Positions 1 to 17,903 of a DNA stretch of 17,903 nt are shown here, one piece after another. How positions within the stretch are numbered: position 1 is the first letter of the stretch; every line of letters begins with the position of its first letter. The notes beneath the pieces are model-generated. The model searched no databases. It saw only the letters and a list, made by a program, of their open reading frames with translations, and was not told the DNA's origin. The stretch is from a virus. The translations under genes and the position numbers were made by a program. Where the stretch lies: UHGV virus genome UHGV-1371914; one strand, given 5' to 3'.

Positions 1-123
1 GTGTCTGTGCCCCCCTATCATGTGACAAAGATCACCCCCATTTTGGTCTATTTGTGTGGTACATCACATGAATTCGCTTGACAATGTTCACCTAATGTGG
101 TAGGTCGGCGGTAGGGCACATTA

Positions 124-161
124 ATAAGCGGTCCTATTGTCAGTACAATAGGGCCGCTTAT
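124..161. repeat. Imperfect 16-bp-arm palindrome inside the ITR (ataagcggtcctattg / tcagta / caatagggccgcttat)
   Basis: Arms 124-139 and 146-161 are reverse complements except for one t/c position, which would be a G-U wobble as RNA. The loop is 6 nt. It lies upstream of the candidate ITR promoter. Confidence 0.6.
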
Positions 162-204
162 GTTAGGACATATGTTGCTGTGTTTTAGTTCACACGTTTT
201 CGGG

Positions 205-236
205 TTGACTGTCGGAGAACTGCGGTGCATTATTAA
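205..236 (+). promoter_or_regulatory. Candidate early promoter inside the left ITR (-35 TTGACT 205-210, 17-nt spacer, -10 CATTAT 228-233 / TATTAAT 231-237)
   Basis: Sigma-70-like hexamers with 17-nt spacing, about 45 nt upstream of the GGAAGGA RBS at 271-277. A perfect TTGACA also sits at 78-83 but without a good -10. Confidence 0.3.
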
Positions 237-283
237 TACACGAACGGGGCGGGGTTAGCCCGCTGGGAATGGAAGGAACTGAG

Positions 284-586
284 ATGACATCACAAAGGGC
301 TAAGGAGACACTGAATAGGTTTCACTATGCATCTCTTTCTCAACAATCGTCATATATTAATCCGAGAATTGTATACAAACTCAAGATTCTTAATGCTACA
401 ATTACACCTAAGTTGCACACATTTCGGGCTTCAGTTCCCGGATATTATGTGGAATGGTTTTACAACTCGGCCACTGCCACATACATGTATATTTCAGGAG
501 CAATTAATGGGGTGGTATTCATGGATCAAGGCGACCTTGATTCATTGTGTGACGAATTAGAACGAATGTTTAGCTACAATATTTAG
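284..586 (+). CDS. Hypothetical early protein (100 aa; alternative start ATG 269 gives 105 aa)
   Basis: ORF track 269..586. ATG 284 has a GGAAGGA RBS at 271-277 with 6-nt spacing. The region is AT-rich. No motif recognised. Confidence 0.45.
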   Translation: MTSQRAKETLNRFHYASLSQQSSYINPRIVYKLKILNATITPKLHTFRASVPGYYVEWFYNSATATYMYISGAINGVVFMDQGDLDSLCDELERMFSYNI

Positions 587-594
587 GACATATC

Positions 595-852
595 ATGTGG
601 GAAAACATTAATGGCGAACTGATTTGGATTGACAAGGAAATGGGGTATGAGGAGTATGAACGACACAATGTTGTTGGTAATAACAAAAATTGCACTTGTG
701 GCAACATCCGGCGTCATGGTGATAGGCTTACTTCGGGCGGGGTTGCTGTCGGTGTGGCTGGCGGCATGATTGCTGCGAAGGCGGCGAGTAGGATCGGGAG
801 TTGGATGTTGTGGATTGCATGCCTCATTTTTATTGCGATGGTCATGTTGTAA
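595..852 (+). CDS. Small early membrane-anchored protein (85 aa). C-terminal hydrophobic helix WMLWIACLIFIAMVML preceded by glycine-zipper GGVAVGVAGGMIAA
   Basis: ORF track. AGGA RBS 6 nt upstream of ATG 595. Hydrophobic C-terminus seen directly in the translation. Confidence 0.45.
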   Translation: MWENINGELIWIDKEMGYEEYERHNVVGNNKNCTCGNIRRHGDRLTSGGVAVGVAGGMIAAKAASRIGSWMLWIACLIFIAMVML

Positions 853-1163
853 GTTTTCCGCAAACTTTTAGGGTTAGGAAATACAATAACGCCCTAGGTT
901 ATAGAACACACAATGTGCTTCGATACGAAACAACTGATACACACACATTTGTTTATCGGATGATGCGAAGTATTGAAGAGGTTGTTATTAGAGTAACAGA
1001 CTCAGATATTGTTGCACAAAACGATCGACTAGGGGCCTTTAAGTACAAGCATTTCCCTTCACACATTCCGATCCATAAAGTTGTGTGCGAGATGCTCACT
1101 AAACCGAATTCATTGGTTGTCCTAGACGACAATCCTGAATCGGTTGAGCAACCACTATTTTAG
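801..1163 (+). CDS. Hypothetical early protein (120 aa as called; start uncertain, overlaps previous ORF by 52 nt)
   Basis: ORF track. GGGAG 793-797 is close to ATG 801. No internal ATG with an SD was found. No motif recognised. Confidence 0.3.
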   Translation: MDVVDCMPHFYCDGHVVSFPQTFRVRKYNNALGYRTHNVLRYETTDTHTFVYRMMRSIEEVVIRVTDSDIVAQNDRLGAFKYKHFPSHIPIHKVVCEMLTKPNSLVVLDDNPESVEQPLF

Positions 1164-1229
1164 ATTCCCGGCTGGACGGGTAATACCAGAACTGAAATGA
1201 AATCTAGCCATACACGAAAGGAAACTATC

Positions 1230-1595
1230 ATGGCTGTTGTTTATTCTTCTCTTTCTGACGATTTCGCTGGCAAGAAGGCTTTTTTCACTGCTCAGAATTC
1301 TGCTGTTTCTTTCAAGGAACTGCGTGGCAAGACGATTGAGATCAAGGACATCGTCATTACTGAGGATGATGTGGTCGACACGGACACTGGTGAGGTTGAG
1401 ACGCGGCGTGCGATCACGGTGATTGACAAGGACGGAAAGGCTTATGGCACTTCGTCTCAGACGGTGGGTGCTCAGATTCAGCGGCTTGTGGATATTCTGG
1501 GTGACGTTAAGTCGTGGTCCGAGCCCGTGGTTGTTGAGATCGGTACTGCCAAGTCCGGGCGTGGTCGCGAGTACACGACGGTGACTCTGGCCTGA
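1230..1595 (+). CDS. Single-stranded DNA-binding protein, phi29 p5-like (121 aa from ATG 1230; track ORF begins 1197)
   Basis: AAGGAAA RBS before ATG 1230. From my memory of phi29 p5, blocks FFTAQNSAVSFKEL, AITVIDKDGKAYGTSSQTV and VVVEIGTAKSGRGREYTTVTL resemble p5 blocks IFNAQTGGGQSFKNL, TTIFAADGSLYSAISKTV and VKVVQGTSSKGNVFFSLQL. It lies immediately upstream of the TP and pol genes, as gene 5 does in phi29. Confidence 0.55.
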   Translation: MAVVYSSLSDDFAGKKAFFTAQNSAVSFKELRGKTIEIKDIVITEDDVVDTDTGEVETRRAITVIDKDGKAYGTSSQTVGAQIQRLVDILGDVKSWSEPVVVEIGTAKSGRGREYTTVTLA

Positions 1596-1618
1596 GTGTC
1601 CTTGTAGGATAGTGATTG

Positions 1619-1654
1619 CCCCCTGCCCCTTAGGGGGCAGGGGGTGTCTGTTTT
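1619..1654 (+). terminator. Rho-independent terminator / attenuator after SSB gene (stem ccccctgcccc / ggggcaggggg, loop ttag, then tgtctgtttt)
   Basis: Perfect 11-bp GC-rich stem 1619-1629 / 1634-1644 followed by a U-rich tract 1645-1654. Confidence 0.65.
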
Positions 1655-2720
1655 GGTTAAGTCTCATTGGGGTAAGCATTATCGTTCGTTTAAGCGTGGC
1701 GCTAAACATGCTCGGAATACGGCGAGTGAGATTAGGTCTTTTGTTGGTGGCCTTGATTTTAATCCGCTCCCTGATACTTTATCTGAGGAACAGGGTAAGG
1801 TTAAGGTTAAGTCGGCGAAGACTAGCGCCCGTGAGAAGCATCGTTCGGACCTGGATACTGCGCGTGAGATGCTTCAGGTTGAGCGCGATAGGGCGATTCG
1901 GAAGATGCGTCGGATGGCGACTAGTGACGATGGTGCTGACATTCGTGGTACTAAGTTTGATCCTTTGGGGAAATCGGCTGTTGGAAGGGTGACTTTGAAG
2001 AATGCTGCGCGGGAACTTGAGCGCCTTAGTGAGTTTAATAATTCTAATAGTGTTTGGTACTATAGTGACCGTAAAGGTAATCCCATTTCTGCTAAAGACG
2101 TTCGTCGTTATCGTGATGCTGTGCGACGCTATAATGAGGACATAGAAGCATACGAACGCTCTGTGGCGGGGACTAAGTTGCCTTATATGGGTGACGTTAC
2201 CGTGGGTGATTGGATTAGAGATTTTCGCCCCTCACGATCTTATTTGCCTGGCGGTTCACATTATGCACTTGAGAGAATGAATCCCGATAAGCGAACTGTG
2301 AATTTCGAGTCTGCTGAAGCAATGCGAGAAAAGACTAATAAGGTTCTTGATAGCCTAAGTAAAGCGGCGAAGCAAGAGAAACTTACGGCTGCAAAGCAAC
2401 AGATCGCGGACATGCTTGACGTCATTGGTGACCCAGAACTTTTCGATATTCTTACAGACATTCCTGACGATGTTTTGTGGCTTATGTGGACCGTTAACGG
2501 TGATTTCGCTAATCAGTTGTCTTTGATGTATGAGGCAGCAAAGGAAGGATATTATGATCGCAAGCGGGCAGGTCAGGATATTTGGTATGATGATGTAGAA
2601 GAAGCAAATTCTAGTATTAAGTCTTTGCTTAAAGACTTAAAGGAAGTTAAGATTAAACCGGAGGATGATTTTAGTGGTTCGCCAATCAATAAGCGAAAGG
2701 CCCGGAAGGGCCGTCGCTAG
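1644..2720 (+). CDS. Putative terminal protein (TP) for protein-primed replication (358 aa from GTG 1644; TTG 1653 is a plausible alternative start)
   Basis: Gene immediately upstream of, and overlapping, the protein-primed DNA polymerase gene (the TP-pol arrangement of phi29/Cp-1). Very basic N-terminal region. Third-codon-position bias matches neighbouring genes from 1644 onward. No sequence-level similarity to a known TP could be confirmed by eye. Confidence 0.5.
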   Translation: MSVLVKSHWGKHYRSFKRGAKHARNTASEIRSFVGGLDFNPLPDTLSEEQGKVKVKSAKTSAREKHRSDLDTAREMLQVERDRAIRKMRRMATSDDGADIRGTKFDPLGKSAVGRVTLKNAARELERLSEFNNSNSVWYYSDRKGNPISAKDVRRYRDAVRRYNEDIEAYERSVAGTKLPYMGDVTVGDWIRDFRPSRSYLPGGSHYALERMNPDKRTVNFESAEAMREKTNKVLDSLSKAAKQEKLTAAKQQIADMLDVIGDPELFDILTDIPDDVLWLMWTVNGDFANQLSLMYEAAKEGYYDRKRAGQDIWYDDVEEANSSIKSLLKDLKEVKIKPEDDFSGSPINKRKARKGRR

Positions 2721-4374
2721 GCGTAGCCATAAAAAGGTTCCTTCGTTTTGTGCGGACTTTGAGACGACTACGGTTGAGGATGATTGTCGCGTGTGGTCTT
2801 GGGGTATTATTCAGGTAGGTAAACTGCAGAATTATGTTGACGGCATTTCGATTGATGGCTTTATGTCTCACATTGCCGAAAGAGCCGCACACATTTATTT
2901 CCACAACCTAGCATTTGATGGCACGTTTATTTTGGATTGGCTGCTTAAACACGGATATTGCTGGGTTAAGGAAAATCCTGGGGTAAAAGAATTTACCTCA
3001 CTCATTTCTCGCATGGGAAAGTATTATTCAATTACAGTAGTGTTTGAGACAGGATATCGGGTAGAATTTCGAGACTCATTTAAGAAGCTACCTATGTCCG
3101 TTTCAGCAATCGCCAAGACATTCAATTTACATGACCAGAAACTAGAGATTGATTATGAGAAACCACGCCCAATAGGATATATCCCTACAGAGCAAGAGAA
3201 ACGATATCAGCGGAACGACGTTGCAATTGTTGCTCAAGCGCTCGAAGTTCAGTTTGAAGAGAAGATGACTAAGTTGACGGCGGGTAGTGATTCGCTGGCA
3301 ACATATAAGAAGATGTCTGGAAAACTGTTTATTAGACGGTTTCCGATTCTTTCACCGGAAATAGATACTGAAATTCGGAAAGCATATCGCGGCGGTTTTA
3401 CATATGCTGACCCGCGCTATTCAAAGAAACTGAACGGACAAGGCAGTGTGTATGACGTCAACTCACTTTATCCATCGGTAATGCGAACAGCACTACTCCC
3501 CTATGGTGACCCGATCTATTCTGAAGGGGCACCGAAGACTGATCGACCGCTTTATATTGCTTCTATAACGTTTACAGCGAAACTAAAACCTAATCATATT
3601 CCATGTATCCAAATTAAGAAAAATCTTTCTTTTAATCCCACACAGTATCTTGAAGAAGTAAATGAACCAACTACTGTTGTGGCAACAAATATTGATATTG
3701 AATTATGGAAAAAGCATTATGACTTTAAGATTTATTCATGGAATGGAACGTTTGAGTTTCGGGGATCACATGGTTTTTTCGACACTTATGTCGACCATTT
3801 TATGGAGATTAAGAAAAATAGTACCGGTGGACTAAGGCAAATTGCTAAGTTGCATTTGAACAGCCTTTATGGAAAATTCGCCACTAACCCGGACATCACA
3901 GGAAAACATCCCACACTTAAAGACAATCGCGTTTCACTAGTAATGAATGAACCTGAAATGCGTGATCCTGTTTACACGCCAATGGGCGTGTTTATCACAG
4001 CCTATGCTCGTAAGAAAACTATTAGTGCGGCACAAGATAATTATGAGACATTTGCATATGCTGATACAGACTCACTGCATCTGATTGGGCCTACCACTCC
4101 CCCAGAATCGTTGTGGGTCGATCCGGTAGAACTGGGTGCCTGGAAGCATGAGAGTTCCTTCACAAATTCTGTCTACATTAGGGCGAAGCAATATGCGGAG
4201 GAAATTGATGGTAAACTAGATGTACACATTGCAGGGATGCCGCGCAACGTGGCCGCCACATTGACATTGGGTGACATGTTGACGGGTGGCACTTGGAATG
4301 GTAAACTGATTCCTGTAAGGGTTCCTGGAGGAATAGTCCTCAAGGACACAACATTCACACTCAAGATTGATTAA
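2665..4374 (+). CDS. Protein-primed family-B DNA polymerase, phi29-type (569 aa; alternative start GTG 2674)
   Basis: Exo I FCADFETTT, Exo II YFHNLAFDG, Exo III YQRNDVAIV, motif A YDVNSLYPS, motif B KLHLNSLYGKF, motif C FAYADTDSLHL. Long blocks are near-identical to phi29 pol (RDPVYTPMGVFITAYAR, VRVPGGIVLKDTTFTLK). GGAGG 2660-2664 lies upstream. Confidence 0.95.
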   Translation: MILVVRQSISERPGRAVARRSHKKVPSFCADFETTTVEDDCRVWSWGIIQVGKLQNYVDGISIDGFMSHIAERAAHIYFHNLAFDGTFILDWLLKHGYCWVKENPGVKEFTSLISRMGKYYSITVVFETGYRVEFRDSFKKLPMSVSAIAKTFNLHDQKLEIDYEKPRPIGYIPTEQEKRYQRNDVAIVAQALEVQFEEKMTKLTAGSDSLATYKKMSGKLFIRRFPILSPEIDTEIRKAYRGGFTYADPRYSKKLNGQGSVYDVNSLYPSVMRTALLPYGDPIYSEGAPKTDRPLYIASITFTAKLKPNHIPCIQIKKNLSFNPTQYLEEVNEPTTVVATNIDIELWKKHYDFKIYSWNGTFEFRGSHGFFDTYVDHFMEIKKNSTGGLRQIAKLHLNSLYGKFATNPDITGKHPTLKDNRVSLVMNEPEMRDPVYTPMGVFITAYARKKTISAAQDNYETFAYADTDSLHLIGPTTPPESLWVDPVELGAWKHESSFTNSVYIRAKQYAEEIDGKLDVHIAGMPRNVAATLTLGDMLTGGTWNGKLIPVRVPGGIVLKDTTFTLKID

Positions 4375-4385
4375 GGTTGGTAATC

Positions 4386-4553
4386 ATGGCACGTCCCGTT
4401 TCTACTCATGCGACCACTAAGTTCCGTCTCAGCAAGGCTGTTCTCGCGGACCTTGAGGAGATGCACTGGACTCTCCGCAAGGATGTTTCGCAGATTGTTG
4501 AGGAAGCCCTTGTCGACTATATCGCTAAGAATGCTCCCAAGTCTGGTAAGTAA
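4386..4553 (+). CDS. Small ribbon-helix-helix (Arc/CopG-like) DNA-binding protein, putative transcriptional regulator (55 aa; below the ORF-track size cutoff)
   Basis: ATG 4386 to TAA 4551-4553. Translation MARPVSTHATTKFRLSKAVLADLEEMHWTLRKDVSQIVEEALVDYIAKNAPKSGK fits the RHH pattern: a beta-strand with alternating residues (KFRLS) followed by two helices. Compare Arc FNLRWPREVLDLVRKVAEENGRSVNSEIYQRVMESF. Confidence 0.45.
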   Translation: MARPVSTHATTKFRLSKAVLADLEEMHWTLRKDVSQIVEEALVDYIAKNAPKSGK

Positions 4554-4651
4554 TTCTTGACCGAATGCGAGGAAGCATCCTAATGAACTGGGCCTTGCTC
4601 GGTTGGGCAGCAACCCTCAGGATTGCTTTCAGATAATTGGGTATTGTGGTA

Positions 4652-4684
4652 GGCTAGGGGCGTAGGCCCCTAGCCACCATTTTA
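4652..4684 (+). terminator. Hairpin at the early/late junction (stem ggctaggggc / gcccctagcc, loop gtag, then accatttt); terminator-like
   Basis: Perfect 10-bp stem 4652-4661 / 4666-4675 followed by a T-run 4680-4683. Located 15 nt upstream of the scaffold-gene RBS. Confidence 0.5.
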
Positions 4685-4698
4685 TGATTGGAGGAAAT

Positions 4699-5541
4699 AT
4701 GGCACTTTCTGACGCTGAGAAGAATGCGCTTAAAGGGCTGAACCCAGATGGTTCCCTGATGAATGAGTCGCAGCGCAAGGCCAATAAGGCTAAGGTCGAC
4801 GCGAAGAATGCCGAGTCCGCTAAGAAGGACAAGGCCGAGCATGGCGGGCGCTCTCTGACCGAGCGGCGCACCGAGGGTGACCCGCAACAGTCTATGGATG
4901 ACGCTCAGACACGAAATAAGGCGGCCCAGAACCTCACGCCGCAGCAGCGCGAGGAATCCGGGATGACCGGTAATGATGTTTTCGATCCGGGCGATTCCGA
5001 CGGAGACAAAAAGGCTGTTTCCCCCGATGACGGGAACATGCTGGAAGGCGCCCCTAAGGACCCTGCGGACGTAGATCATTTCAAGGATACTAAGGCGGCT
5101 TGGAAGCATCTCACGGACGTGTTTGGTGAAAAGGTTTCTGCCTTACAGGCGGAACTTGAGAATCGGCTTGGCGACCAACTTACTCCGACGGACAGGGAGA
5201 CGGGGAATCCGTTTGCTGGGGGCGACGTTCCGGCGTCGAAGGAGATGACGCTGGATGATGTTAAGGAAGCCGCTCAGAGCACGAAGGATGATGCTAAGGC
5301 GGTGCTCAAGGGCGTTGGCGATGTTGGCGGCGCCGCTGTCGAACTAGGTGGCACCGCAGCGAAGGATGCGGGTAATGCTATAGTGGATGGTATGGGGATC
5401 GACCGTAAGGCGGCCGCTAGCACCGGGAAGACGTTGGCAGGTCTTTCGGGACTATTCTCTAGTAGTGACTCAGGGAATGATAAGGTTCCTGATTCTAATT
5501 GGAAACCTAAGTCAATTAACGAACTTTTTAAGGGGAACTGA
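4699..5541 (+). CDS. Putative head scaffolding protein (280 aa from ATG 4699; track ORF from 4684)
   Basis: GGAGGA RBS 4690-4695. Acidic, low-complexity, predicted-helical Ala/Asp/Lys/Glu-rich protein encoded directly upstream of the major capsid gene. Confidence 0.45.
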   Translation: MALSDAEKNALKGLNPDGSLMNESQRKANKAKVDAKNAESAKKDKAEHGGRSLTERRTEGDPQQSMDDAQTRNKAAQNLTPQQREESGMTGNDVFDPGDSDGDKKAVSPDDGNMLEGAPKDPADVDHFKDTKAAWKHLTDVFGEKVSALQAELENRLGDQLTPTDRETGNPFAGGDVPASKEMTLDDVKEAAQSTKDDAKAVLKGVGDVGGAAVELGGTAAKDAGNAIVDGMGIDRKAAASTGKTLAGLSGLFSSSDSGNDKVPDSNWKPKSINELFKGN

Positions 5542-5543
5542 TT

Positions 5544-6911
5544 ATGCCACAGTTGCAAGACGATACTTCAAACATTGATATTCTTAACGCCATTCGTTCT
5601 GATGCGCGCTACGATTATCAGAACATGGTTCCCGAGGCCACTAAGGCCAATATTCAGGAAACCATTTCGGGCATCATGTCTGACAACATTACTCGAAACG
5701 AATTCATGTCTGCCCTGATTAACCGAATCGGTTCTATCATTGTTCGGGATATTTCCTGGAAGAATCCGCTTGCGGTATTCAAGCAGGGCATGATGTCTTT
5801 CGGTGACACTATCGAGGAAGTGCACCTCGACTTTATTAAGCCCACCATTTATGAGGAGCATCGCGACTATCTTGAGCGTGACGTGTTTGGGCAGGCCCCT
5901 CCCCCGGCTAAGAGTGCTTTCCATACTCTTAACCGTAAGGAGAAGTTTAAGATCACGGTTAACCGTGATGTTATTCGTAGGGCATTCCTTTCGGACAACG
6001 GTCTTTCTGAGATGGTTTCTCAGATTATGTCTGTTGCTGCTTCTTCCGATGAGTGGTCTGAGTTCCTTTACATGACTCGGCTGCTTAAGACTTTCGATGA
6101 TTCGTTCGGATTTTTCCGTATGCAGATCGCGGATCTTAATCAGTTTGAGGTCAATAAGGATAAGGTCGACACAGCGCTTAAGGCTCTGAGGGTTGCCGCG
6201 AACAAAATGATGTATCCGACACCTGCATTTAATTCCGCGGGCGTGCATTCGTTTGCTCGGCCTGAGGACCTGGTGCTTATTGCCACGCCCGAGTTTAAAG
6301 CGAATGTTGACGTGACTTCCCTGGCCGCTGCGTTTAATCGCAGTGACGCCGAGGCCCCGTCGCACATTATCACCGTTCCGGGCGAGGTTATGGGGATGGA
6401 TGACACGTCCGCTATTCTCACTAGCAAGCAATTCTTCGTTATCAAGGACTTGCTGCTTGAGAATCGGAATATTTCCAACCCTGAGGGCCTTTATGATAAC
6501 TACTGGCTGCATCACTGGTCTATTCTGAGCGCCTCACCGTTCACCCCTGCGATTGCGTTCGGCACTAAGCCGAACACGATTGTTGTGACGCCTAAGGATG
6601 AGACGAACGCTGAGATTAATGATATTACGGTGAGTAAGCGAGACGGGTCTAAGTCGTCAATCATGCCTCCCGGCGCCATTCGTCAGGCTGATATTGTGTG
6701 GAAGACTAAGCCTGCCAATAATGGTTATGCTACGGATTGGTATCTTAAGAATTCTAAGTCTAAGGCAACTAAGGTTAGCAACGATGGTGTTATCACTATC
6801 GGCGCTGATGAGCCCGAGGGATATCTTACTCTTGGTGTGAATGTCGACACTAAGGGACCGAACGGCAATAAGCCGGTGAATAAGGAGATCACTATTCAGA
6901 TTAAGAAGTGA
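5544..6911 (+). CDS. Major capsid protein (455 aa) with C-terminal Ig-like (Big_2-type) domain
   Basis: AAGGGGA RBS. Size close to phi29 gp8 (448 aa). Position between the scaffold and the tail/portal genes. C-terminal ~100 aa (about nt 6600-6908) has the beta-rich Ig-like pattern VVTPKD...ITVSKRDGS...VWKTKP...ITIGADEPEGYLTLGVNV. Confidence 0.6.
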   Translation: MPQLQDDTSNIDILNAIRSDARYDYQNMVPEATKANIQETISGIMSDNITRNEFMSALINRIGSIIVRDISWKNPLAVFKQGMMSFGDTIEEVHLDFIKPTIYEEHRDYLERDVFGQAPPPAKSAFHTLNRKEKFKITVNRDVIRRAFLSDNGLSEMVSQIMSVAASSDEWSEFLYMTRLLKTFDDSFGFFRMQIADLNQFEVNKDKVDTALKALRVAANKMMYPTPAFNSAGVHSFARPEDLVLIATPEFKANVDVTSLAAAFNRSDAEAPSHIITVPGEVMGMDDTSAILTSKQFFVIKDLLLENRNISNPEGLYDNYWLHHWSILSASPFTPAIAFGTKPNTIVVTPKDETNAEINDITVSKRDGSKSSIMPPGAIRQADIVWKTKPANNGYATDWYLKNSKSKATKVSNDGVITIGADEPEGYLTLGVNVDTKGPNGNKPVNKEITIQIKK

Positions 6912-6923
6912 TTTAATCAGTGT

Positions 6924-6955
6924 AGAACCGGGCGCCTCATTAGGTGCCCGGTTCT
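6924..6955 (+). terminator. Intergenic hairpin after capsid gene (13-bp stem with one G-U, loop tcatta); weak U-tract, probably a partial terminator or RNA stabiliser
   Basis: Arms 6924-6936 / 6943-6955 seen directly. Downstream is tgctatactt, not a strong U-run. Confidence 0.35.
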
Positions 6956-6970
6956 GCTATACTTGAGACC

Positions 6971-10827: not shown

Positions 10828-12289
10828 CGACATTATCGGCTCCATTGATCGCGCTCTATGGCGCGTTCAGTCTAGGAACATTAACAATGTAACCCCGTTT
10901 ACGTATCGCGATGGGCTTACGTATACTGACGTGCTTGAGCGGATTCGCGGCAGCGTCATTGACGTCATTGAATTCGTTAGCAAGTTCGGTGATGAGCAAG
11001 ACAAGATTATTGCCAAACTTAATGAGACGGTAAACAACTTCATTACTGAGGTTGAGAAGACACACTCAGGTTGGAATAAGGAACTGGACACAAAGAAGAC
11101 CGCGCTCGAGTCGCTAATCGAAGACTTCAAGCGCCGCCTTATTGATGCCGAATTCCGTGAGGTTGACGGCAACTATATTGAAGCGCCACTTAAGTCGCCT
11201 GCCGGTAAGCGGGTTACGCTCACAACTAAGGCGTGGGGAGATGCGCTAAATGCCCAGAATTCTCAGTTTCAGACAGAGATTCAGGAGAAACTGGCCCAGC
11301 AGCGTAGGGACTTCGACAATCGTTTCCCGGCCTACTACACGAAGGTCGAGGCTAACGACATCTTCCTCGAGGACCCTAAACTCACTGAGGGCGTAGTCAT
11401 TGGGTCATCTAATGCCACGATTGAAGCAAGCCGCTGGACCGAGACTCTGTGTCGTGAGTTGGGACTTAACCCTAATGTGTACGCAATTGGTGGTGGCGGG
11501 TTTACTTCAACGTCCGATAATAATTTCCTGACACAGTTGGATAATGCTAAGCAAGGAATGTCTGAGGATAAGCGCCGCAGAACTAAATACCTATTCGTGA
11601 TCGACCTACTGAACGATATTCGAGCACAGAATTCTGTGGGAGACAAGGCGGCAACCTTTTTCAGGCTTGCCCGCCAGTACTTCCCTAACGCGGATATTCG
11701 CGTGCTTCCGGTCATCTTTAATGAGTCCTCACTGAATGAGTATGTTCAGATGGCGCGGTCCTGTGTATCTCGCACATTCGAGGTCGTTAATGCCGGCAAG
11801 CCCTATGGGGCCGTTGTCTGCGAAGGTTCTCGCGGTTGGGTGCATTGGGGTGACGAGCAAGCCAAGTCCTGGGACCAAGGGCCGGATAATGTTCATATGA
11901 CCGCATCGGGGTATACGCATATTAAGGAACTGTTTGAGGTTTGGCTCAAGGGCGGCTCGAGTTGGTTTAACCCTCCGGCGATGGCACTGCATACACTATC
12001 TGACGGTACTGTGGCGAAGGACTATAACTATCTCACGTGCGAACGCGACAGAGATTGGGTTTATATTCAAGGAACATTCAAAATTGGAACAAATAACGTA
12101 GGATACGATGGTCGACTAATGAGCATCCCCGGATGGGCGCGCCCCTACGACGGTGTTATGTCTCCCATTATTGGAAATGACAGAACATACAAATATCTAT
12201 ATGTCGCTAAGACTGGAGGAATTTACGCAGGAGACATTCTCTCCGCAAACCAGACCTACCAAGTGAACATGACCTACAAAATCTGGTGA
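10814..12289 (+). CDS. Tail appendage / fibre protein with N-terminal coiled-coil and central SGNH (GDSL-like) esterase domain (491 aa from ATG 10814; track ORF from 10724)
   Basis: GGAGGA RBS 10804-10809. SGNH blocks in order: I VVIGSSNA (Ser), II YAIGGGGF (Gly), III VIDLLND (Asn), V DNVH (Asp-x-x-His), spanning about nt 11380-11960. Position corresponds to phi29 gene 12. Confidence 0.55.
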   Translation: MATGDDIIGSIDRALWRVQSRNINNVTPFTYRDGLTYTDVLERIRGSVIDVIEFVSKFGDEQDKIIAKLNETVNNFITEVEKTHSGWNKELDTKKTALESLIEDFKRRLIDAEFREVDGNYIEAPLKSPAGKRVTLTTKAWGDALNAQNSQFQTEIQEKLAQQRRDFDNRFPAYYTKVEANDIFLEDPKLTEGVVIGSSNATIEASRWTETLCRELGLNPNVYAIGGGGFTSTSDNNFLTQLDNAKQGMSEDKRRRTKYLFVIDLLNDIRAQNSVGDKAATFFRLARQYFPNADIRVLPVIFNESSLNEYVQMARSCVSRTFEVVNAGKPYGAVVCEGSRGWVHWGDEQAKSWDQGPDNVHMTASGYTHIKELFEVWLKGGSSWFNPPAMALHTLSDGTVAKDYNYLTCERDRDWVYIQGTFKIGTNNVGYDGRLMSIPGWARPYDGVMSPIIGNDRTYKYLYVAKTGGIYAGDILSANQTYQVNMTYKIW

Positions 12290-12299
12290 GTAGACAGGA

Positions 12300-12342
12300 A
12301 TAGCCTGCCCCGATAGAATTGGGGCAGGCTATTTCTGTGTGG
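12300..12342 (+). terminator. Hairpin terminator/attenuator between fibre and tail-lysin genes (stem atagcctgcccc / ggggcaggctat, loop gatagaatt, then ttctgtgt)
   Basis: Perfect 12-bp stem 12300-12311 / 12321-12332 followed by a U-rich tract. Confidence 0.5.
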
Positions 12343-12349
12343 AGGAACT

Positions 12350-13654
12350 ATGGCGTGGGACGCAACAGCAAAGAAAGTTGCGATTAAGGCTATTGGTCAG
12401 GTTGAGTCATCTATGGACTACTCGGCAATCAACTACAATGACCCGATTACTGTGGGGATTGCTCAGTGGTATGGCACTCGTGCGGCGGCAATTCTTAACA
12501 GAATGCGTGGAGCACACTCTGCGGAATACGCGCGTGTCGATAGTGGGTTTAGGTCCCGACTTGAATCTGTTCCCGAGTCTGATTCGTCCTGGAACACCTA
12601 CTATCTTTCTCGCGGCGTTGGCGATAGTCTTAAGCCATTGCTTAATGCGAGCAAGGATATTCAGGGTGACCAGATTGTCAAGGACCTTGAAAACTATTTC
12701 ACTGTCGCTAAACAATATGGGATTAATCCTGACACGGACACCGACGCCTTTATCTTATGGTGTGTTGCTTACCATCAAGGCCCGCGATATGCATTGCAGG
12801 CGGCAAACCACTATTCCGGTAGCGGTCTTGAAGAGATGTATTCTGACATCATGGCTAACGGCGTTCTAGGCAGATACGGCAATAGGTATTCTCAAGCTAA
12901 AAACATCATTGCCGGCAAAGACACTAGCGGCGTTGGCGAAGGCGGCATTAGTGCAAACACTCCCGGTAATGGTGGGAGCGTTGGACAGAATGGTCAGGCA
13001 GTAAACGTGTCTGGCGGAAAACTAATTATCAGTGCTGACGACTCAGGAATTCTCACTCTAAGGTCAAAATTTGGTAATTACCAAATGTACTCCCACGGGC
13101 ACAATCTGTGGGAAGTAAACCTCAAAGACATCCAAGAGAAAATCGTCGGACAAAGCCCGCAAGCGAACGCCGGTGGGGGAGGCGGCGGAGGCGGCGCCCC
13201 TGCCCCAGGCGGCTCGGGTAAAGGTGCGGCAGCACTCGCATGGGTAATGTCCCGGTTGGGTAAATTTGCCTACTGCCAGTGTCCTGGCAGGCAGGACCCT
13301 GACAACTCGGGTATCACTGATTGTTCGGGGTTGATGTACGCAGCCTACATGGCCACTTCAAACACGTTCGTAGGCACTTGGACAGGTGACCAGTACTTCC
13401 GTGGGGCTGAGCCGTTCCCTCGCCGTGGCGGGGCTATGACGGCCGCTGAGCGCTCCCAGTTGCGGCCAGGGGACATGATCGTCATGGCCTGGAAGTCAAC
13501 GGGCAGTTACTATCCTGAAACTGACCATGTAGAAATGGTTGTGGACTCGAATACACTTGTAGGACATGGTGGTAATCCCCACTATGGGCCCGTCACAAAA
13601 TCTATTGATATTCTCGCCGGCACGCGTTGGTGGACAGTAAGGCGTCATGAATGA
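12350..13654 (+). CDS. Tail-associated peptidoglycan hydrolase, phi29 gp13-like: N-terminal lysozyme-like domain + Gly-rich linker + C-terminal NlpC/P60 endopeptidase (434 aa)
   Basis: GGAGGA RBS 12341-12346. From memory of gp13: N-terminal GQVESSMDYSAINYNDPITVGIAQW resembles the gp13 N-domain GNMQSESTINPG...GLVQW. Linker GGGGGGGGAPAPGGSGKG. C-terminal NlpC/P60 signature ITDCSGLMYAAY (Cys) with downstream His in TDHVEM / GHGGNPH. Confidence 0.7.
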   Translation: MAWDATAKKVAIKAIGQVESSMDYSAINYNDPITVGIAQWYGTRAAAILNRMRGAHSAEYARVDSGFRSRLESVPESDSSWNTYYLSRGVGDSLKPLLNASKDIQGDQIVKDLENYFTVAKQYGINPDTDTDAFILWCVAYHQGPRYALQAANHYSGSGLEEMYSDIMANGVLGRYGNRYSQAKNIIAGKDTSGVGEGGISANTPGNGGSVGQNGQAVNVSGGKLIISADDSGILTLRSKFGNYQMYSHGHNLWEVNLKDIQEKIVGQSPQANAGGGGGGGGAPAPGGSGKGAAALAWVMSRLGKFAYCQCPGRQDPDNSGITDCSGLMYAAYMATSNTFVGTWTGDQYFRGAEPFPRRGGAMTAAERSQLRPGDMIVMAWKSTGSYYPETDHVEMVVDSNTLVGHGGNPHYGPVTKSIDILAGTRWWTVRRHE

Positions 13655-14646
13655 AAAAGAAATTCTCATACTATAGTTTCTCTAAGGTTCTATCTTATGC
13701 TGGTGTCTTTAATATGATTATGGGCGCCCGTGGCCTTGGTAAAACTTATGGTGCCAAAAAGATTGTGATTAAGAATGCAATCAATAAGGGGCAGCAATTC
13801 ATTTATCTCCGTCGATACAAGACAGAACTCAAGGGCCGCAACAGTTTCTTTGCTGATATTCAGCACGAATTCCCTGATGAGGAATTCCGCGTTGAAGGGC
13901 AGTATGCGCAGCGTAAGGTTGGGAAGAAATGGGAGACCATCGGATATTTTATTCCGCTTTCTACGGCGCAAGCAAATAAGTCTATTGCGTATCCGAATGT
14001 TTATACAATCATTTTTGATGAATTCATTATCGACAAGGGTTCACTCCGGTATCTCCCTGATGAGGCGAAAGTATTTATGGACTTTTACTCAACAGTAGAC
14101 CGTTACCAAGATAGAGTGCGTTGCCTAATGCTTTCCAATGCGGTCAGCATTATGAACCCCTATTTCATTCGATTCCACATAGAACCTAAGGAAGGAATTA
14201 GCCGTCACGCTGATGGATTTATCGTTACCGATTTCGTCAACAGTGAGCAATTCCAATCGGAAGTGGCACACACTCGATTTGGTTCATTCGTCACAAACTA
14301 TGCTGAGGACTACGCTGACTACTCTATCTCAAACAAATTCGCCGACAACTATGACGACTTTGTCATGAAAAAGACAGGAAAAGCAAAATACGCATTCTCC
14401 CTCCGGTGCCCCGAGGGCGAGGTCTCTATCTGGATCGACGGCGGCACGTGGTTCGCCCAGCGTCGCCAGCCCCGCGGGGATAGGGTAAGATGGGCCTATA
14501 GGGTCACAGACCTGAGAGAAGGTGAGCGGCTCCTCGTGTACGGGGACAAAGTACTCAGCATCATGCGGAGCACCTACCGGAAAGGTCGACTTTTCTCTGA
14601 CTCTCCTGAGACTCGAAACATGTTCGCTGAAATCTTTGTCCGATAA
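13651..14646 (+). CDS. DNA encapsidation (packaging) ATPase, phi29 gp16-like (331 aa)
   Basis: Walker A GARGLGKT near the N-terminus. Walker B hhhhDE as TIIFDEF. Size matches phi29 gp16 (332 aa) and the gene sits at the end of the late operon. ATGAATGA overlap with the upstream gene. Confidence 0.8.
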   Translation: MKKKFSYYSFSKVLSYAGVFNMIMGARGLGKTYGAKKIVIKNAINKGQQFIYLRRYKTELKGRNSFFADIQHEFPDEEFRVEGQYAQRKVGKKWETIGYFIPLSTAQANKSIAYPNVYTIIFDEFIIDKGSLRYLPDEAKVFMDFYSTVDRYQDRVRCLMLSNAVSIMNPYFIRFHIEPKEGISRHADGFIVTDFVNSEQFQSEVAHTRFGSFVTNYAEDYADYSISNKFADNYDDFVMKKTGKAKYAFSLRCPEGEVSIWIDGGTWFAQRRQPRGDRVRWAYRVTDLREGERLLVYGDKVLSIMRSTYRKGRLFSDSPETRNMFAEIFVR

Positions 14647-14951
14647 TGATACACATTAACCCCACCACAATTGACGTTGCCCTAATCCTTGCCATCGTAT
14701 CCCTGGTAACAATTGCAGGGAGATTCATTTATCGTGCCACACGATTCATGGATCACCTAGCAACAATGCTAGACGCGTGGGACGGAAAAGACGGGACACC
14801 TGGCGTCCTGGACCGGCTTGAAGATATTGAAAACAAACTAAAAGACGTGCAATATCACGTCAAACCAAACCACGGCGGCTCAAGCGTTGACGCACAGAAC
14901 CGCCAACTACGAGAAATCATTTCCTATCTTAAGGAGAAAAACAATGGGTGA
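14646..14951 (+). CDS. Small membrane protein in the lysis cassette (101 aa; one N-terminal TM helix IDVALILAIVSLVTIAG, helical C-terminus); holin-like or antiholin candidate
   Basis: TAATG overlap with the ATPase stop. Hydrophobic segment seen in the translation. Sits immediately upstream of the holin and endolysin genes. Confidence 0.45.
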   Translation: MIHINPTTIDVALILAIVSLVTIAGRFIYRATRFMDHLATMLDAWDGKDGTPGVLDRLEDIENKLKDVQYHVKPNHGGSSVDAQNRQLREIISYLKEKNNG

Positions 14952-15144
14952 GCACGAGTCCCTCAAGCCTCCCTTTATTCCCGACGCATACCGGCTGTGG
15001 GCTTACATCGTCAGTGTTGGCGTCCTCGTATGTCTTGGTGTATGGGGCGTTATTGACGGTGACAAGATTTCCGCCCTTAATTTCCTGTTCGCCGCATTCT
15101 TCGGAGTCGCCGCAAACAATGTCCCCCGAGGAAAGGCATCCTAA
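14944..15144 (+). CDS. Holin, class II-like (66 aa, two TM segments LWAYIVSVGVLVCLGVWGVI and ISALNFLFAAFFGVAA)
   Basis: AAGGAG RBS 14931-14936 with 7-nt spacer to ATG 14944 (track ORF from 14887). Two hydrophobic helices. Immediately upstream of the endolysin gene with a TAATG overlap. Confidence 0.6.
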   Translation: MGEHESLKPPFIPDAYRLWAYIVSVGVLVCLGVWGVIDGDKISALNFLFAAFFGVAANNVPRGKAS

Positions 15145-15959
15145 TGGTAGTTCGCGCAGAGATCATCTCCGCCGCACAATCCGAGATCGGGTACTCCCGA
15201 TGGGCCGATGATGGTACGGGGACAAAGTATGGGCGCTGGTACGCCCAAGCGACCGGCTCACCCAGTTTCGGTGCCTCGGGTGTTCCCTACTGCGATATGT
15301 TCGTTAGTTATGTTCTATCGAAAGTCGGAATTAACTGGCTAAGCGCCTACGTCCCCGGACGTGAAGCCCAAGCCAGGCAGCGCGGCGTCCTCATTAACAA
15401 ATGGGACGTTCGCCCCGGCGATCTAGTCACCTTCGACTGGCAGGGCGACGGAGAGTCCGACCATATCGGTTTTGCCACGAGTGCCCCCTACGGAACCAAT
15501 ATCGACACCATTGAAGGCAATACTTCCTGGGGATATTCCGGTTCGCAGGGAAATGGTGGCGTCGTCACAAATAAGCAGCGCAGTATGGATGACGTTGTGT
15601 GGGGTATTCGCGTAGTTGACGACAATTCCGCGATTTCCAGTGGCGGCAATATCAAGGACATTCAGCGAATTCTCGGCGCTATCCAGGACAACATTCTTGG
15701 CGTCGACACTGAGAAGCGAATGTGCGCCGTAATCAAAGCCAGCAATTGGGGTGGTCGCGAGTTCCCGTGGGGTGTTGCCTACACCCAAAGCGTCGTAGGC
15801 ACCACTCCCGACGGCGTATGGGGCGACGCCAGCGAGGCTGCGCATGATCGCGTCATCGAGTCCCTACAGGGCGCCCTAGGTGTCACCATCGACGGTGTAT
15901 GGGGTCCCGAGACCTGGGCTGCATGGGAGCGACTGGCCCGCACCGCAGAACGCCCATAA
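15144..15959 (+). CDS. Endolysin: N-terminal CHAP peptidase/amidase domain + C-terminal PG_binding_1 peptidoglycan-binding repeats (271 aa)
   Basis: GAGGAAAGG RBS. CHAP catalytic Cys in GVPYCDMFVSY and His in ESDHIGF. C-terminal DGVWG..xxW repeats (TPDGVWGDASEAAHDRV, IDGVWGPETWAAWERL) typical of the PG_binding_1 domain. Confidence 0.85.
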   Translation: MVVRAEIISAAQSEIGYSRWADDGTGTKYGRWYAQATGSPSFGASGVPYCDMFVSYVLSKVGINWLSAYVPGREAQARQRGVLINKWDVRPGDLVTFDWQGDGESDHIGFATSAPYGTNIDTIEGNTSWGYSGSQGNGGVVTNKQRSMDDVVWGIRVVDDNSAISSGGNIKDIQRILGAIQDNILGVDTEKRMCAVIKASNWGGREFPWGVAYTQSVVGTTPDGVWGDASEAAHDRVIESLQGALGVTIDGVWGPETWAAWERLARTAERP

Positions 15960-15964
15960 TAAAC

Positions 15965-16006
15965 AGTTAATCCCCGGAAGGAACCAACCACTTCCGGGGA
16001 TTAACT
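15965..16006. terminator. Convergent (bidirectional) terminator: perfect 16-bp stem agttaatccccggaag / cttccggggattaact with 10-nt loop
   Basis: Arms 15965-15980 / 15991-16006. An A-tract upstream on + gives a U-tract for the - strand transcript. Sits between the end of the + late operon (15959) and the end of the - right-arm operon (16013). Confidence 0.6.
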
Positions 16007-16012
16007 ATGTCC

Positions 16013-16288
16013 TCACATATCAAGTGCTGTCAAATCAACTCCAATCGACTCGAGACATTCATAATAGAATTCGCGGCATTTCTCTCCGCCGTTGTGTCCG
16101 AAACGCTTAATAGTGTTTTGTCCTGTCAACTTATCTGAAAATATCACGCGGTTATCCGGCCAGCCATAAACGTCAAGACGATAATCGTCACCGTCAATCA
16201 GAATGCGAGTACACCTAACCACGATATTATATCCTGGGAGTTGGTCTACCAGATTAAGTTTCTTAGCGAATTCGCTGAAATGATACAT
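16013..16288 (-). CDS. Hypothetical right-arm early protein (91 aa)
   Basis: ORF track. GGGGGT SD upstream. TAATG overlap with the upstream gene, consistent with translational coupling. AT-rich. No motif recognised. Confidence 0.45.
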   Translation of the reverse strand: MYHFSEFAKKLNLVDQLPGYNIVVRCTRILIDGDDYRLDVYGWPDNRVIFSDKLTGQNTIKRFGHNGGEKCREFYYECLESIGVDLTALDM

Positions 16289-16575
16289 TAAATTACCCCC
16301 ATGCTTTCCAGGCCCAGAAACAGTAGTGTTAGATTTCGTTCCGCAAGACTATTGAAGTAAACAATCGTTCCACTTTCTGTTTTATGTGGATTCCAGGCTT
16401 CCAGGCAGTAATCATTAATTAAACGAAATGCTGTATTGTTGCAATAAATAATGTTTGCGCCGCCTGGCGTGTAACATTCTTTCATTCCATGTGAGCGAAG
16501 TTTACGTTTAACTCCTGCTATGTTCGTGTAATAACGATGGTAATTGTGTGCATTAATACTATTCATCGCTATCAC
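16288..16575 (-). CDS. Hypothetical right-arm early protein (95 aa; GTG 16575 or ATG 16566 start), Cys/His-containing
   Basis: ORF track. Start uncertain. AT-rich. No confident motif. Confidence 0.4.
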   Translation of the reverse strand: MIAMNSINAHNYHRYYTNIAGVKRKLRSHGMKECYTPGGANIIYCNNTAFRLINDYCLEAWNPHKTESGTIVYFNSLAERNLTLLFLGLESMGVI

Positions 16576-16636
16576 ACTTCAGCGACTTAACCCACAACGC
16601 CGACCGTTCAGGAGTATCATTAAGGTTCGTATGCTT

Positions 16637-16646
16637 AATATACCAA
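16637..16646 (-). promoter_or_regulatory. Candidate internal promoter on - strand with extended -10 (TGgTATATT)
   Basis: Reverse complement of 16637-16646 is ttggtatatt, matching the TGnTATAAT extended -10 at 8/9 positions. It lies about 60 nt upstream of the 16575/16566 start. Confidence 0.2.
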
Positions 16647-16677
16647 TTGCTATCGCCCGTGCGCTCAAGAATTACCA

Positions 16678-16845
16678 TTATTTGAAGTTCCTATCTGTCT
16701 CAATGATGACCTGGAAAATGGTGGTATTAAGTGTGTCGAAATCTCCTGGATTTGTTTTTACTGAAAATTTCTCTCCCCGATAAATAACAGATGTTGAGAC
16801 AAGTGGTCCGACTACACACGATACAATTAGAAGGTCTGAAAGCAT
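16678..16845 (-). CDS. Possible small ORF (55 aa) in the 345-bp gap of the right-arm operon; alternatively a remnant of a decayed gene
   Basis: ATG from the reverse complement of 16843-16845 through TAA at the reverse complement of 16678-16680. Below the track cutoff. Two shorter ORFs (18 and 10 aa) lie in other frames just upstream. Confidence 0.15.
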   Translation of the reverse strand: MLSDLLIVSCVVGPLVSTSVIYRGEKFSVKTNPGDFDTLNTTIFQVIIETDRNFK

Positions 16846-16921
16846 GACCGCAAGTTCATTTCCACCTGATATGTGTTCGATCGTATCTTGTAGAAAATTT
16901 TTGTTGATTCATCGATAATTG

Positions 16922-17161
16922 TCATTTTTCTTCCTCATCTATGTCATTGATGAAACTAGTAATTGAACTAAATATGTAATCTGTCTCGCCAATCTCACCA
17001 ATAATATGAAATTTCTTTTTCTTATAAATCACAATCCAAGACACAAATGATTCAATCAGCCTAACACTTAGTACAATACTAGGTGTCTTGACTATGATGT
17101 CATTTCCTTCACTCGCATATCCAATTATGTCGTTAATTAACCATTTAAGCGCATTATTCAC
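16922..17161 (-). CDS. Hypothetical right-arm early protein (79 aa, acidic C-terminus DIDEEEK)
   Basis: ORF track. 8-nt overlap with the upstream gene. AT-rich. Confidence 0.4.
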   Translation of the reverse strand: MNNALKWLINDIIGYASEGNDIIVKTPSIVLSVRLIESFVSWIVIYKKKKFHIIGEIGETDYIFSSITSFINDIDEEEK

Positions 17162-17390
17162 GGTTTCTTACCACACTGTTTTCAATTCCTGTTTTGCTTG
17201 AAATTATATTATCAATCGAAATTATGTGATACTCATTCGTGACATTCTTAAAATAATGGATGCGATTAGTGTCGGAATAATAGGCGATTTGATATCCCTT
17301 CAATAATACATTAGCGATAAAATTAGAAACTTTCCAATAGGTGAGGGTGACAAAACCGTCACCCTCACCATGATGCGACCTACGCCTCAC
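17154..17390 (-). CDS. Hypothetical right-arm early protein (78 aa, basic N-terminus)
   Basis: ORF track. ATGA start/stop overlap with 17387..17620. AT-rich. Confidence 0.4.
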   Translation of the reverse strand: MRRRSHHGEGDGFVTLTYWKVSNFIANVLLKGYQIAYYSDTNRIHYFKNVTNEYHIISIDNIISSKTGIENSVVRNRE

Positions 17391-17620
17391 AACCGATCAC
17401 CAAACCAAGCCAACAACTCCCACTGAGAACCAAACCAAAACGAATCGCCATCCGTATCACGCACCTCCCACTTCCGAGAACCACGACGAAAAACATAAAT
17501 CTTATCACCACCATAAGACACCAAGCCCCTCTGACCTGCCGCCCAAGTCTGAACGCTGTACCCTGCCTCCTCGTAGAACTTGCTCGCCCCTGCCCCAAGC
17601 AGTGTCTTGATTGCTTCCAT
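17387..17620 (-). CDS. Hypothetical right-arm early protein (77 aa from the ATG at 17620; the alternative ATG 17635 gives 82 aa); first gene driven from the right ITR
   Basis: Identical ITR-encoded GGAAGGA RBS and 6-nt spacer as the left-end gene. GC-rich, unlike the downstream right-arm genes. Confidence 0.5.
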   Translation of the reverse strand: MEAIKTLLGAGASKFYEEAGYSVQTWAAGQRGLVSYGGDKIYVFRRGSRKWEVRDTDGDSFWFGSQWELLAWFGDRL

Positions 17621-17667
17621 TTCAGTTCCTTCCATTCCCAGCGGGCTAACCCCGCCCCGTTCGTGTA

Positions 17668-17699
17668 TTAATAATGCACCGCAGTTCTCCGACAGTCAA
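17668..17699 (-). promoter_or_regulatory. Mirror copy of the candidate ITR promoter, driving right-arm early genes inward on the - strand
   Basis: ITR mirror of 205-236. The first gene (17387..17620) follows an identical UTR and RBS. Confidence 0.3.
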
Positions 17700-17742
17700 C
17701 CCGAAAACGTGTGAACTAAAACACAGCAACATATGTCCTAAC

Positions 17743-17780
17743 ATAAGCGGCCCTATTGTACTGACAATAGGACCGCTTAT
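17743..17780. repeat. Mirror copy of the ITR palindrome
   Basis: ITR mirror of 124-161. Confidence 0.6.
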
Positions 17781-17903
17781 TAATGTGCCCTACCGCCGAC
17801 CTACCACATTAGGTGAACATTGTCAAGCGAATTCATGTGATGTACCACACAAATAGACCAAAATGGGGGTGATCTTTGTCACATGATAGGGGGGCACAGA
17901 CAC

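Follow-up and report, generated by a model that had tools for sequence, protein, structure and literature searches.

A candidate prohead RNA and long terminal repeats in a phi29-type podophage genome related to Actinomyces phage Av-1

Described phages that resemble the genome analysed here include Actinomyces phage Av-1 (Dybvigvirus Av1, NC_009643, 17,171 bp), Streptococcus phage Cp-1 (Cepunavirus, Salasmaviridae) and phi29. Cp-1 combines a long inverted terminal repeat (ITR) with left early genes that read inward and are followed by a terminator and then by the late genes, and its short right arm is encoded on the opposite strand, whereas phi29 has 6-bp ITRs, left early genes that read outward and a prohead RNA (pRNA) encoded at the genome end. 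According to two reviews, of 2016 and 2024, pRNA has been found only in the phi29-like phages of Bacillus (PMC5066667, PMC11476376); PMC11476376 lists roughly 2,100 genomes related to phi29. Our search of the literature in full text returned no report of an actinophage pRNA. Here we describe virus genome UHGV-1371914, a stretch of 17,903 nucleotides (nt) that was analysed over its whole length and is referred to below as the window. It is very probably the complete linear genome, possibly one terminal nucleotide short at each end, of an uncultivated, Av-1-like (Dybvigvirus-related) podophage of the human mouth, and it encodes between its early and late genes a structured RNA that we consider a candidate pRNA.

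A Megablast search of 50,697 phage records returned Av-1 as the sole match, with 78% nucleotide identity over 71% of the query in collinear order. The aligned blocks comprised window positions 1153–4687 (83% identity), 5086–11010 (74%) and 12341–16651 (75%) as well as both ITRs (80%). Av-1 proteins matched 18 of the 24 open reading frames (ORFs) of the window, 17 of them at 61–97% identity and the remaining one, ORF13, at 39%. Every Av-1 core gene was found, and the core proteins shared by the two phages are 72–97% identical; a collinear genome with the core proteins in common is what defines a Dybvigvirus by gene content. Terminal sequence and the offset of the early promoter within the ITR are likewise shared. 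In contrast, the window is 732 bases longer than Av-1, lacks the first T of the Av-1 record and differs in ORF1, ORF3 and four right-arm ORFs, which are unrelated. The window contains no N and has a G+C content of 47.6%; by the ORF set adopted for the analysis, 94% of it is coding. Nearly all genes between 284 and 15959 lie on the + strand, and those between 16013 and 17620 on the − strand. A first-pass annotation made from the sequence had recognised a Cp-1/Av-1-like layout from the inward-reading left-arm genes, along with a complete phi29-type gene set, and both observations were confirmed; the short right arm, encoded on the opposite strand, fits this layout too. The family-B DNA polymerase (PolB), the single-stranded DNA-binding protein (SSB), the portal, the gp16 ATPase and the gp13-like protein were identified by Pfam, the terminal protein (TP) by homology and position, and all phi29-type modules were recovered by Pfam or PHROG. 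The families shared with phi29 itself are the p5 SSB, PolB, the major capsid protein (MCP), gp9, gp10, gp11 and gp16. Likeness to Cp-1 lies in the layout, the long ITR and a CCCCCA motif about 35 nt from the end; its proteins are distant (polymerase below 60% identity), TP similarity is undetectable and its host is a Firmicute.

That this phi29-type genome is linear and complete, as the same annotation had proposed, is supported by its ends. The window starts with GTGTCTGTGCCCCCC and bears GTGTCTGTG at either end, and the Av-1 record starts with TGTGTCTGTGCCCCCC at both of its ends. At both ends the window can be aligned to the Av-1 termini starting with Av-1 base 2, an offset of 1 nt, and five independent IMG/VR contigs begin at the first G of the window. 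The common start of these five contigs and the coincidence with the Av-1 ends indicate that the window ends are real genome ends. What weighs against this at the level of the single base is the extra 5' T of the Av-1 record (TGTGTC, compared to GTGTC in the window and the five contigs), which leaves the exact terminal base uncertain. With or without this T, the dinucleotide GT/TG is repeated at the terminus, as sliding-back or jumping-back initiation would predict. A motif YCCCCA(T/A)T located 25–45 nt from the genome end (33–44 in the window) is common to the window, Av-1, Cp-1 and several actinobacterial phi29-like phages and may be a conserved origin element.

It is very improbable that the ends are assembly artefacts and that the window is not the full genome. 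The window is a metagenome contig whose proteins are recorded in JGI, Logan and ENA on a contig of 17,903 nt, the Av-1 record has one more terminal base, and a further assembly of the same phage stops short of both ends: ERR589468 (PRJEB6997), an independent ENA assembly of a human oral metagenome, is 99.97% identical across 10.4 kb and exactly and symmetrically 155 nt shorter per end. Yet the ends of the Av-1 isolate coincide with those of the window within 1 nt on both sides, the same end base occurs in five other contigs, the terminal 45 nt are near-invariant across the clade, and no Av-1 core gene is missing. The first-pass annotation had further suggested a divergent lineage whose special trait is its long ITRs, and had named more than 90% identity of the polymerase or portal to a described phage as a finding that would speak against it. 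This reading is improbable as well, although marginally better placed. The intergenomic similarity of ~62% to Av-1, determined as blastn identity x coverage, which approximates VIRIDIC, is borderline and lies below the ICTV genus guideline of ≥70% nucleotide similarity across the genome, so that a separate genus name is arguable; moreover, the terminal early genes are unrelated to those of Av-1 and the putative receptor-binding protein is only 39% identical. On the other side, identity to Av-1 reaches 94.5% for the polymerase, which exceeds the 90% limit named by the annotation, 97% for the ATPase, 95% for SSB and 87% for both MCP and portal, relatives in IMG/VR (>138) form a continuum between the window phage and Av-1, and ITRs of 171–286 bp are seen throughout the clade. 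These relatives comprise at least 138 contigs for the polymerase (83–97% amino acid identity) and 149 for the ATPase, mostly of 17–18 kb; 39 full contigs were reassembled from overlapping IMG/VR loci with a length filter. The closest of the IMG/VR genomes shows a similarity of ~82%, and in public metagenomes the TP family comprises 240 clusters at 90% identity. With aligned blocks at 74–83%, the window does not reach the line of ≥95% nucleotide identity for the species Dybvigvirus Av1. The present numbers already indicate placement inside the Av-1 cluster, and by sequence the phage is a new species inside a well-populated oral group, at or just beyond genus Dybvigvirus by the 70% rule.

Strong conservation was seen in the gap that separates ORF7, the last gene of the left early operon, from the first late gene, and this gap is predicted to adopt a branched fold. 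The fold comprises a candidate pRNA domain I of 106 nt (4536–4641, +), arranged as a three-way junction between the polymerase/ORF7 genes and the late genes. Helix A has 19 bp with two 3-nt bulges; the stop codon of ORF7 (TAA/TGA) sits within this helix and covaries with its partner. Past a 1-nt junction, the long arm runs through an 8-bp helix, a 5'-side bulge of 6 nt (AAGCAU) and a 3-bp helix to a loop of 8 nt (AAUGAACU); a 3-nt junction then leads to the short arm, the hairpin GGG-CAGCAA-CCC. At a distance of 8 nt, an intrinsic terminator follows (4648–4683, +), a GC-rich hairpin with a U run, at which both the left early operon and the RNA end and which corresponds to domain II of pRNA; after it come the ribosome-binding site (RBS) and the ATG (4699) of the first late gene. 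Among 53 distinct sequences of the 4536–4641 RNA, 99.0% of cells were paired across the 47 predicted pairs, compared to only 28–55% in controls with slid partners. Double-sided, compensatory changes occurred at 17 of the 47 pairs, whereas column shuffles gave 8.3±1.5 and none of 500 reached 17. The structure conservation index (SCI) was 0.96 on the + strand and 0.73 on the − strand, compared to 0.01–0.26 for coding controls, and the many G.U pairs identify the + strand as the RNA strand. Thus, 4536–4683 is computationally well supported as a structured RNA; its homologous region in Av-1 is 4453–4600. Rfam returned no meaningful match, either to the whole window or to 4500–4700; a match to Bp1_781 at 4913–4994 (−) was rejected, as it lies in a coding region and its 26 bits are far under the gathering score. 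The 9-mer TGTGGTAGG occurs at 4645–4653, overlapping the 5' arm of the terminator, and again in the ITR at 96–104, after an invariant TTGACA. It reads as an extended −10 element (TG-n-TAGGYY); the repetition is possibly due to chance, yet the motif is conserved at both places in relatives.

The Rfam consensus structure of phi29 pRNA (RF00044) consists of helix A with a 3-nt bulge, helix C, a CE bulge loop on the 5' side, helix E with a UUGAGU loop, a UUU junction and hairpin D, and in the phi29 molecule a linker and the hairpin of a second domain follow (PMC5066667). The 4536–4641 RNA agrees with this consensus in its elements, their order and the junction lengths of 1/3/0, including the UGA in the E loop, and the terminator hairpin matches the second domain. 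The genomic position agrees as well: the pRNAs of phi29 and GA-1 are encoded on the early strand downstream of the polymerase gene and a few small ORFs and are followed by a terminator, an order identical to that in the window. The only difference in order is that the early block of the window is inverted relative to the late genes, and therefore the RNA is located inside the genome and not at its end. Taken by analogy with phi29, the 4536–4641 RNA is probably a real pRNA that would dock the gp16 ATPase on the portal. The fuller proposition, that 4536–4683 is a genuine pRNA, the first beyond the Bacillus phi29 group and internal at the early/late boundary, and that the feature annotated as 'packaging RNA' in Av-1 is misplaced, is one that we favour by a slightly smaller degree.

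Comparable folds were found in phi29-like actinophages compared with the window, namely Arthrobacter Anjalivirus phages, Curtobacterium phages Ayka, Brave, Reje, Pize and Mantle, Glutamicibacter phage Voltaire and 'Rhizobium' phage RHph_N3_8. They share with the window the gene order SSB-TP-polymerase-small ORF (polymerase about 50% and TP 24% identity) and a gap of ~100–210 nt between annotated genes that contains a branched fold and a strong terminator ahead of the capsid genes; however, they infect soil and plant bacteria, some have outward left-arm genes, and their RNAs are not significantly alignable. A fold of 110–120 nt with the same architecture, an E loop of the form YUGAAN and a strong terminator occupies this gap in Arthrobacter phages Mendel and Tillums, in all five Curtobacterium phages and in RHph_N3_8, with minimum free energy (MFE) z-scores of −3 to −5 (computed for Brave, Mendel and RHph_N3_8). 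At the same spot Voltaire has a stable branched fold and a terminator, with domain boundaries that could not be defined, and in Microbacterium phage PineapplePizza no fold of this architecture was found at the syntenic position. In Cp-1, the region 4685–4800 between early terminator and first late gene has a stable fold (z about −4.7) with a hairpin loop CCUUGA; experimentally mapped late promoters lie within it, and the MFE fold lacks a clear three-way junction. The 'packaging RNA' annotated in Av-1 (16295–16402; about 16197–16305 in the window) was rejected as a structured RNA: it lies inside ORFs C/B, has an MFE z-score of +0.6 and an SCI of 0.15–0.18, similar to the coding controls. Its annotation is probably misplaced.

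Several results weigh against the identification as pRNA. The candidate has neither sequence nor covariance-model similarity to phi29 pRNA, and RF00044 returned no match to 4500–4700 even at E≤10. This test has low power, since at its gathering threshold RF00044 finds phi29 pRNA only, misses the annotated pRNA of GA-1 and finds nothing in B103; the model is too narrow for pRNA searches elsewhere. A clade-specific covariance model built by us (R1) was not significant on the RNAs of distant actinophages, as only the window scored and Mendel reached E=2.1; homology across genera is thus not demonstrated by covariance model. The CE and D loops of phi29 have 4 complementary bases and those of the window 2: in the window clade CE bulge and D loop share GC/GC only, which is no better than chance (P about 0.5) in a weak test that gives P=0.12 for phi29 itself. 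By the same test, the complement amounts to 4–5 bp in a divergent Av-1-like clade, 5 bp in Mendel and 2–4 bp in others. The chance-level loop complementarity would also fit a cis-acting device at the early/late boundary, that is, an attenuator or antitermination RNA, a platform to which the ORF7 protein, with its weak ribbon-helix-helix (RHH) signal, would bind, or a 3' stabiliser of the early mRNA. We regard such a function of 4536–4683 as a serious but rather unlikely alternative. In its favour, the element lies between the early and late operons with the terminator and the first late RBS directly after it and no space for a late promoter past the terminator, the 5' arm of that terminator shares bases with the conserved TGTGGTAGG, and the mapped late promoters of Cp-1 occupy the equivalent gap. 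However, no alternative antiterminator pairing was seen upon inspection by eye of the aligned sequences, and against a cis-acting device stand the element-by-element match to the topology of phi29 pRNA, with its 1/3/0 junctions, 5'-side bulge and UGA-containing E loop, and the same polymerase-small ORF-RNA-terminator order around the real pRNAs of phi29 and GA-1. In addition, the gp16-type ATPase of phi29 requires such an RNA (PMC5066667). We retain pRNA as the preferred reading of this element.

Comparison of the two ends and a repeat search showed that positions 1–286 are the reverse complement of 17618–17903 save for position 283 (G left, A right), which bears out the repeat of 286 bp with one mismatch in the first-pass annotation; inward of it, from position 287, the two ends are unrelated. 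Chance cannot account for an inverted repeat of this length that coincides exactly with the two ends of an 18-kb sequence. An alignment of 38 homologues was used to dissect the left ITR (1–286, +). The terminal origin region (1–45, GTGTCTGTGCCCCCC...CACCCCCATTTT) is near-invariant, and an ATCACA box (64–69) and a TTGACAA box (78–84) are invariant, TTGACAA in all relatives. The latter forms part of a putative promoter-like site (78–106, +) with TTGACA at 78–83, a 17-nt spacer and TG-G-TAGGTC at 98–106, for which sequence and conservation suggest a function. Further inward follow a hairpin (124–161, +; right copy 17743–17780), the early promoter (TTGACT-17-CATTAT, 205–233, +) at the same offsets as the annotated −35 and −10 boxes of Av-1, a small covarying hairpin in the 5' untranslated region (5'UTR; 249–263, +), an RBS recognised by its sequence (GGAAGGA, 271–277, +) and the ATG (284–286, +) with which the ITR ends. 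The right ITR (17618–17903, −) holds the same cassette, which would drive the right-arm early genes, and its lone mismatch pairs with position 283. The hairpin at 124–161 has 16 bp; among 44 homologous sequences, compensatory double changes occurred at 8 of the 16 pairs, and T.G (U.G) wobbles were confined to the inward-reading strand. This restriction argues for a single-stranded structure, of RNA or of a displaced strand, over a protein-binding palindrome. As a structure the hairpin is well supported computationally, and candidate roles would be those of an attenuator, a small RNA or a displaced-strand structure. A U-rich, non-canonical tail lies downstream of it.

The anatomy of the ITR explains why its length varies within the clade: the repeat stops where the two early cassettes cease to match. 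In the window both ends carry an identical whole early cassette, and the repeat therefore extends over 286 bp, exactly to the codon that starts the first gene of each arm. The right end of Av-1 and of some relatives changes over to a different promoter and UTR just past the −35 box, so that their ITRs end near position 205; the Av-1 ITR accordingly measures ~204 bp with 12 mismatches. ITRs of 171, 247 and 285(+2) bp were measured in three relatives whose assemblies reach both ends, and Cp-1 has 236 bp, while those of C. perfringens phages measure 25–30 bp (PMC3362512). Thus, the first-pass annotation correctly described the ITR as long compared to that of phi29, but long ITRs are normal in the Av-1 clade (171–286 bp) and stand out only against those of phi29 and the C. 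perfringens phages.

Gene content was read directly from the window, and its arrangement suggests a life plan modelled on the phi29/Cp-1 paradigm. TP would prime the family-B polymerase at both genome ends. Each 286-bp ITR would hold the origin together with an identical early promoter, 5'UTR, RBS and ATG, and the identity of the two cassettes implies inward transcription from both ends. The left early operon would express small ORFs, SSB, TP, polymerase and a small RHH-like protein and close with the structured RNA and the intrinsic terminator. The late operon would then provide, in this order, the gene in scaffold position, capsid, tail knob, portal, lower collar, receptor-binding protein, gp13-like hydrolase, gp16 ATPase, holins and endolysin, and a bidirectional terminator would part it from the short right-arm early operon. 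As pRNA, the RNA at 4536–4641 would dock the gp16 ATPase on the portal.

The left early operon opens, within a variable cassette, with an ORF of 100 amino acids (aa; 284–586, +) that has no family match and no Av-1 homologue. It is followed by a small early protein of 85 aa with a hydrophobic C-terminus (595–852, +; 65% to Av-1 ORF2), which we take to resemble phi29 p1 in size and hydrophobic tail, and a variable ORF of 120 aa without an Av-1 homologue (801–1163, +). The gene at 595–852 is the only one at the left end kept in all 39 fully assembled relatives; its flanking genes are swapped cassettes. The phi29 p5-type SSB (1197–1595, +) matched Phi29_Phage_SSB at 9e-14 and is 95% identical to Av-1 SSB. 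Between SSB and TP lies a GC-rich hairpin of 13 bp (1617–1646; TGCCCCCTGCCCC/GGGGCAGGGGGTG), and several IMG/VR contigs, e.g. L041 and L057, break exactly there, indicating that it disrupts assembly. The TP candidate (358 aa, 1644–2720, +) lies between SSB and polymerase and is 88% identical to the annotated TP of Av-1; the protein annotated as TP in Curtobacterium phage Brave matches it at 24% identity (E 6e-13). Its position and homology point to a TP, for which covalent linkage to the 5' ends is predicted. Against this assignment stand the absence of a Pfam, PHROG or PDB sequence match and of similarity to the TPs of Cp-1 and phi29. An AlphaFold2 model from a 22-sequence alignment reached a mean per-residue confidence (pLDDT) of 49, and Foldseek found nothing below E=2.7 in the PDB, a result that is uninformative. 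The protein-primed family-B DNA polymerase (2665–4374, +) matched Pfam DNA_pol_B_2 at 3.5e-70. ORF7 (55 aa, 4386–4553, +; 80% to Av-1) has a weak RHH signal, and its syntenic gene in Mendel is annotated as RHH; it may be a transcription regulator.

The late genes begin with a gene (4699–5541, +) in the position of the scaffolding protein, as in Cp-1 and phage Ayka, whose product is 63% identical to Av-1 ORF8 in its C-terminal part. The first-pass annotation held that only the portal is close to phi29; this does not apply, as three further structural proteins match phi29 families: the phi29-type MCP (5544–6911, +; Phi29_MCP 3.6e-97), the gp9-like tail knob protein (6944–9175, +; gp9 C-terminal domain 6.7e-9; 72% to Av-1) and the gp11-like lower collar or adaptor (10099–10827, +; PHROG lower collar 2e-13; 88%). 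The gp10-like portal, or upper collar connector (9165–10139, +), matched Pfam Phage_connector at 2e-43. The ORF13 homologue (10814–12289, +) is the most divergent structural protein and has a weak SGNH/GDSL esterase signal; its product is likely the receptor-binding appendage and host-range determinant. A 21-bp hairpin lies downstream of it (12294–12338). The next gene encodes a gp13-like, tail-associated peptidoglycan hydrolase (12350–13654, +; 74%) with an NlpC/P60 C-terminus and a lysozyme-like N-terminus (weak phage-lysozyme match), and its homologue is named 'antireceptor' in the Av-1 record. The gp16-type DNA packaging ATPase (13651–14646, +) matched Pfam Podovirus_Gp16 at 1.6e-65. The lysis cassette (14646–15959, +) comprises HolA (14646–14951, +; 84%), HolB (14944–15144, +; 85%) and a CHAP/peptidoglycan-binding endolysin (15144–15959, +; 78%).

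A perfect 16-bp inverted repeat at 15965–16006 forms a bidirectional terminator between the converging late and right-arm operons. The six right-arm early genes (16013–17620, −) include homologues of Av-1 ORF C (16013–16288, −; 71%) and ORF B (16288–16575, −; 61%). Six terminal ORFs lack an Av-1 counterpart, namely 284–586 and 801–1163 at the left and 16678–16845, 16922–17161, 17154–17390 and 17387–17620 at the right. None of the 39 fully assembled relatives has a homologue of 16700–16900; this region is AT-rich (38–40% G+C in the right arm compared to 47.6% overall) and includes small ORFs at 16678–16845 and 16827–16925.

The host is most likely an oral Actinomyces, as judged from Av-1 and habitat, which agrees with the actinobacterial host suggested by the first-pass annotation: the nearest isolate, Av-1, infects Actinomyces naeslundii, and the 99.97% identical contig originates from a human oral metagenome. 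Against this stands that the phage was found in no Actinomyces genome in a search of bacterial genome assemblies. The only two matches in these assemblies were whole Av-1-like phage contigs of 16.8 and 17.4 kb in metagenome-assembled genomes of Candidatus Saccharibacteria and Atopobium. Both contigs are almost certainly mis-binned and give no reliable information on the host.

With this genome, a common group of human oral phages so far represented by one isolate gains a further species; the sequence is of use for annotating the oral phageome and not surprising by itself. If the 4536–4683 element is a true pRNA, its syntenic equivalents in Arthrobacter, Curtobacterium, Glutamicibacter and related phages would suggest that a much wider set of gp16-type podophages inherited pRNA-dependent packaging from their ancestor. 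Such RNAs would also offer new three-way-junction scaffolds. An RNA of the phi29 pRNA topology, backed by covariation, in actinobacterial relatives makes the question of whether all gp16-type motors use an RNA directly testable.

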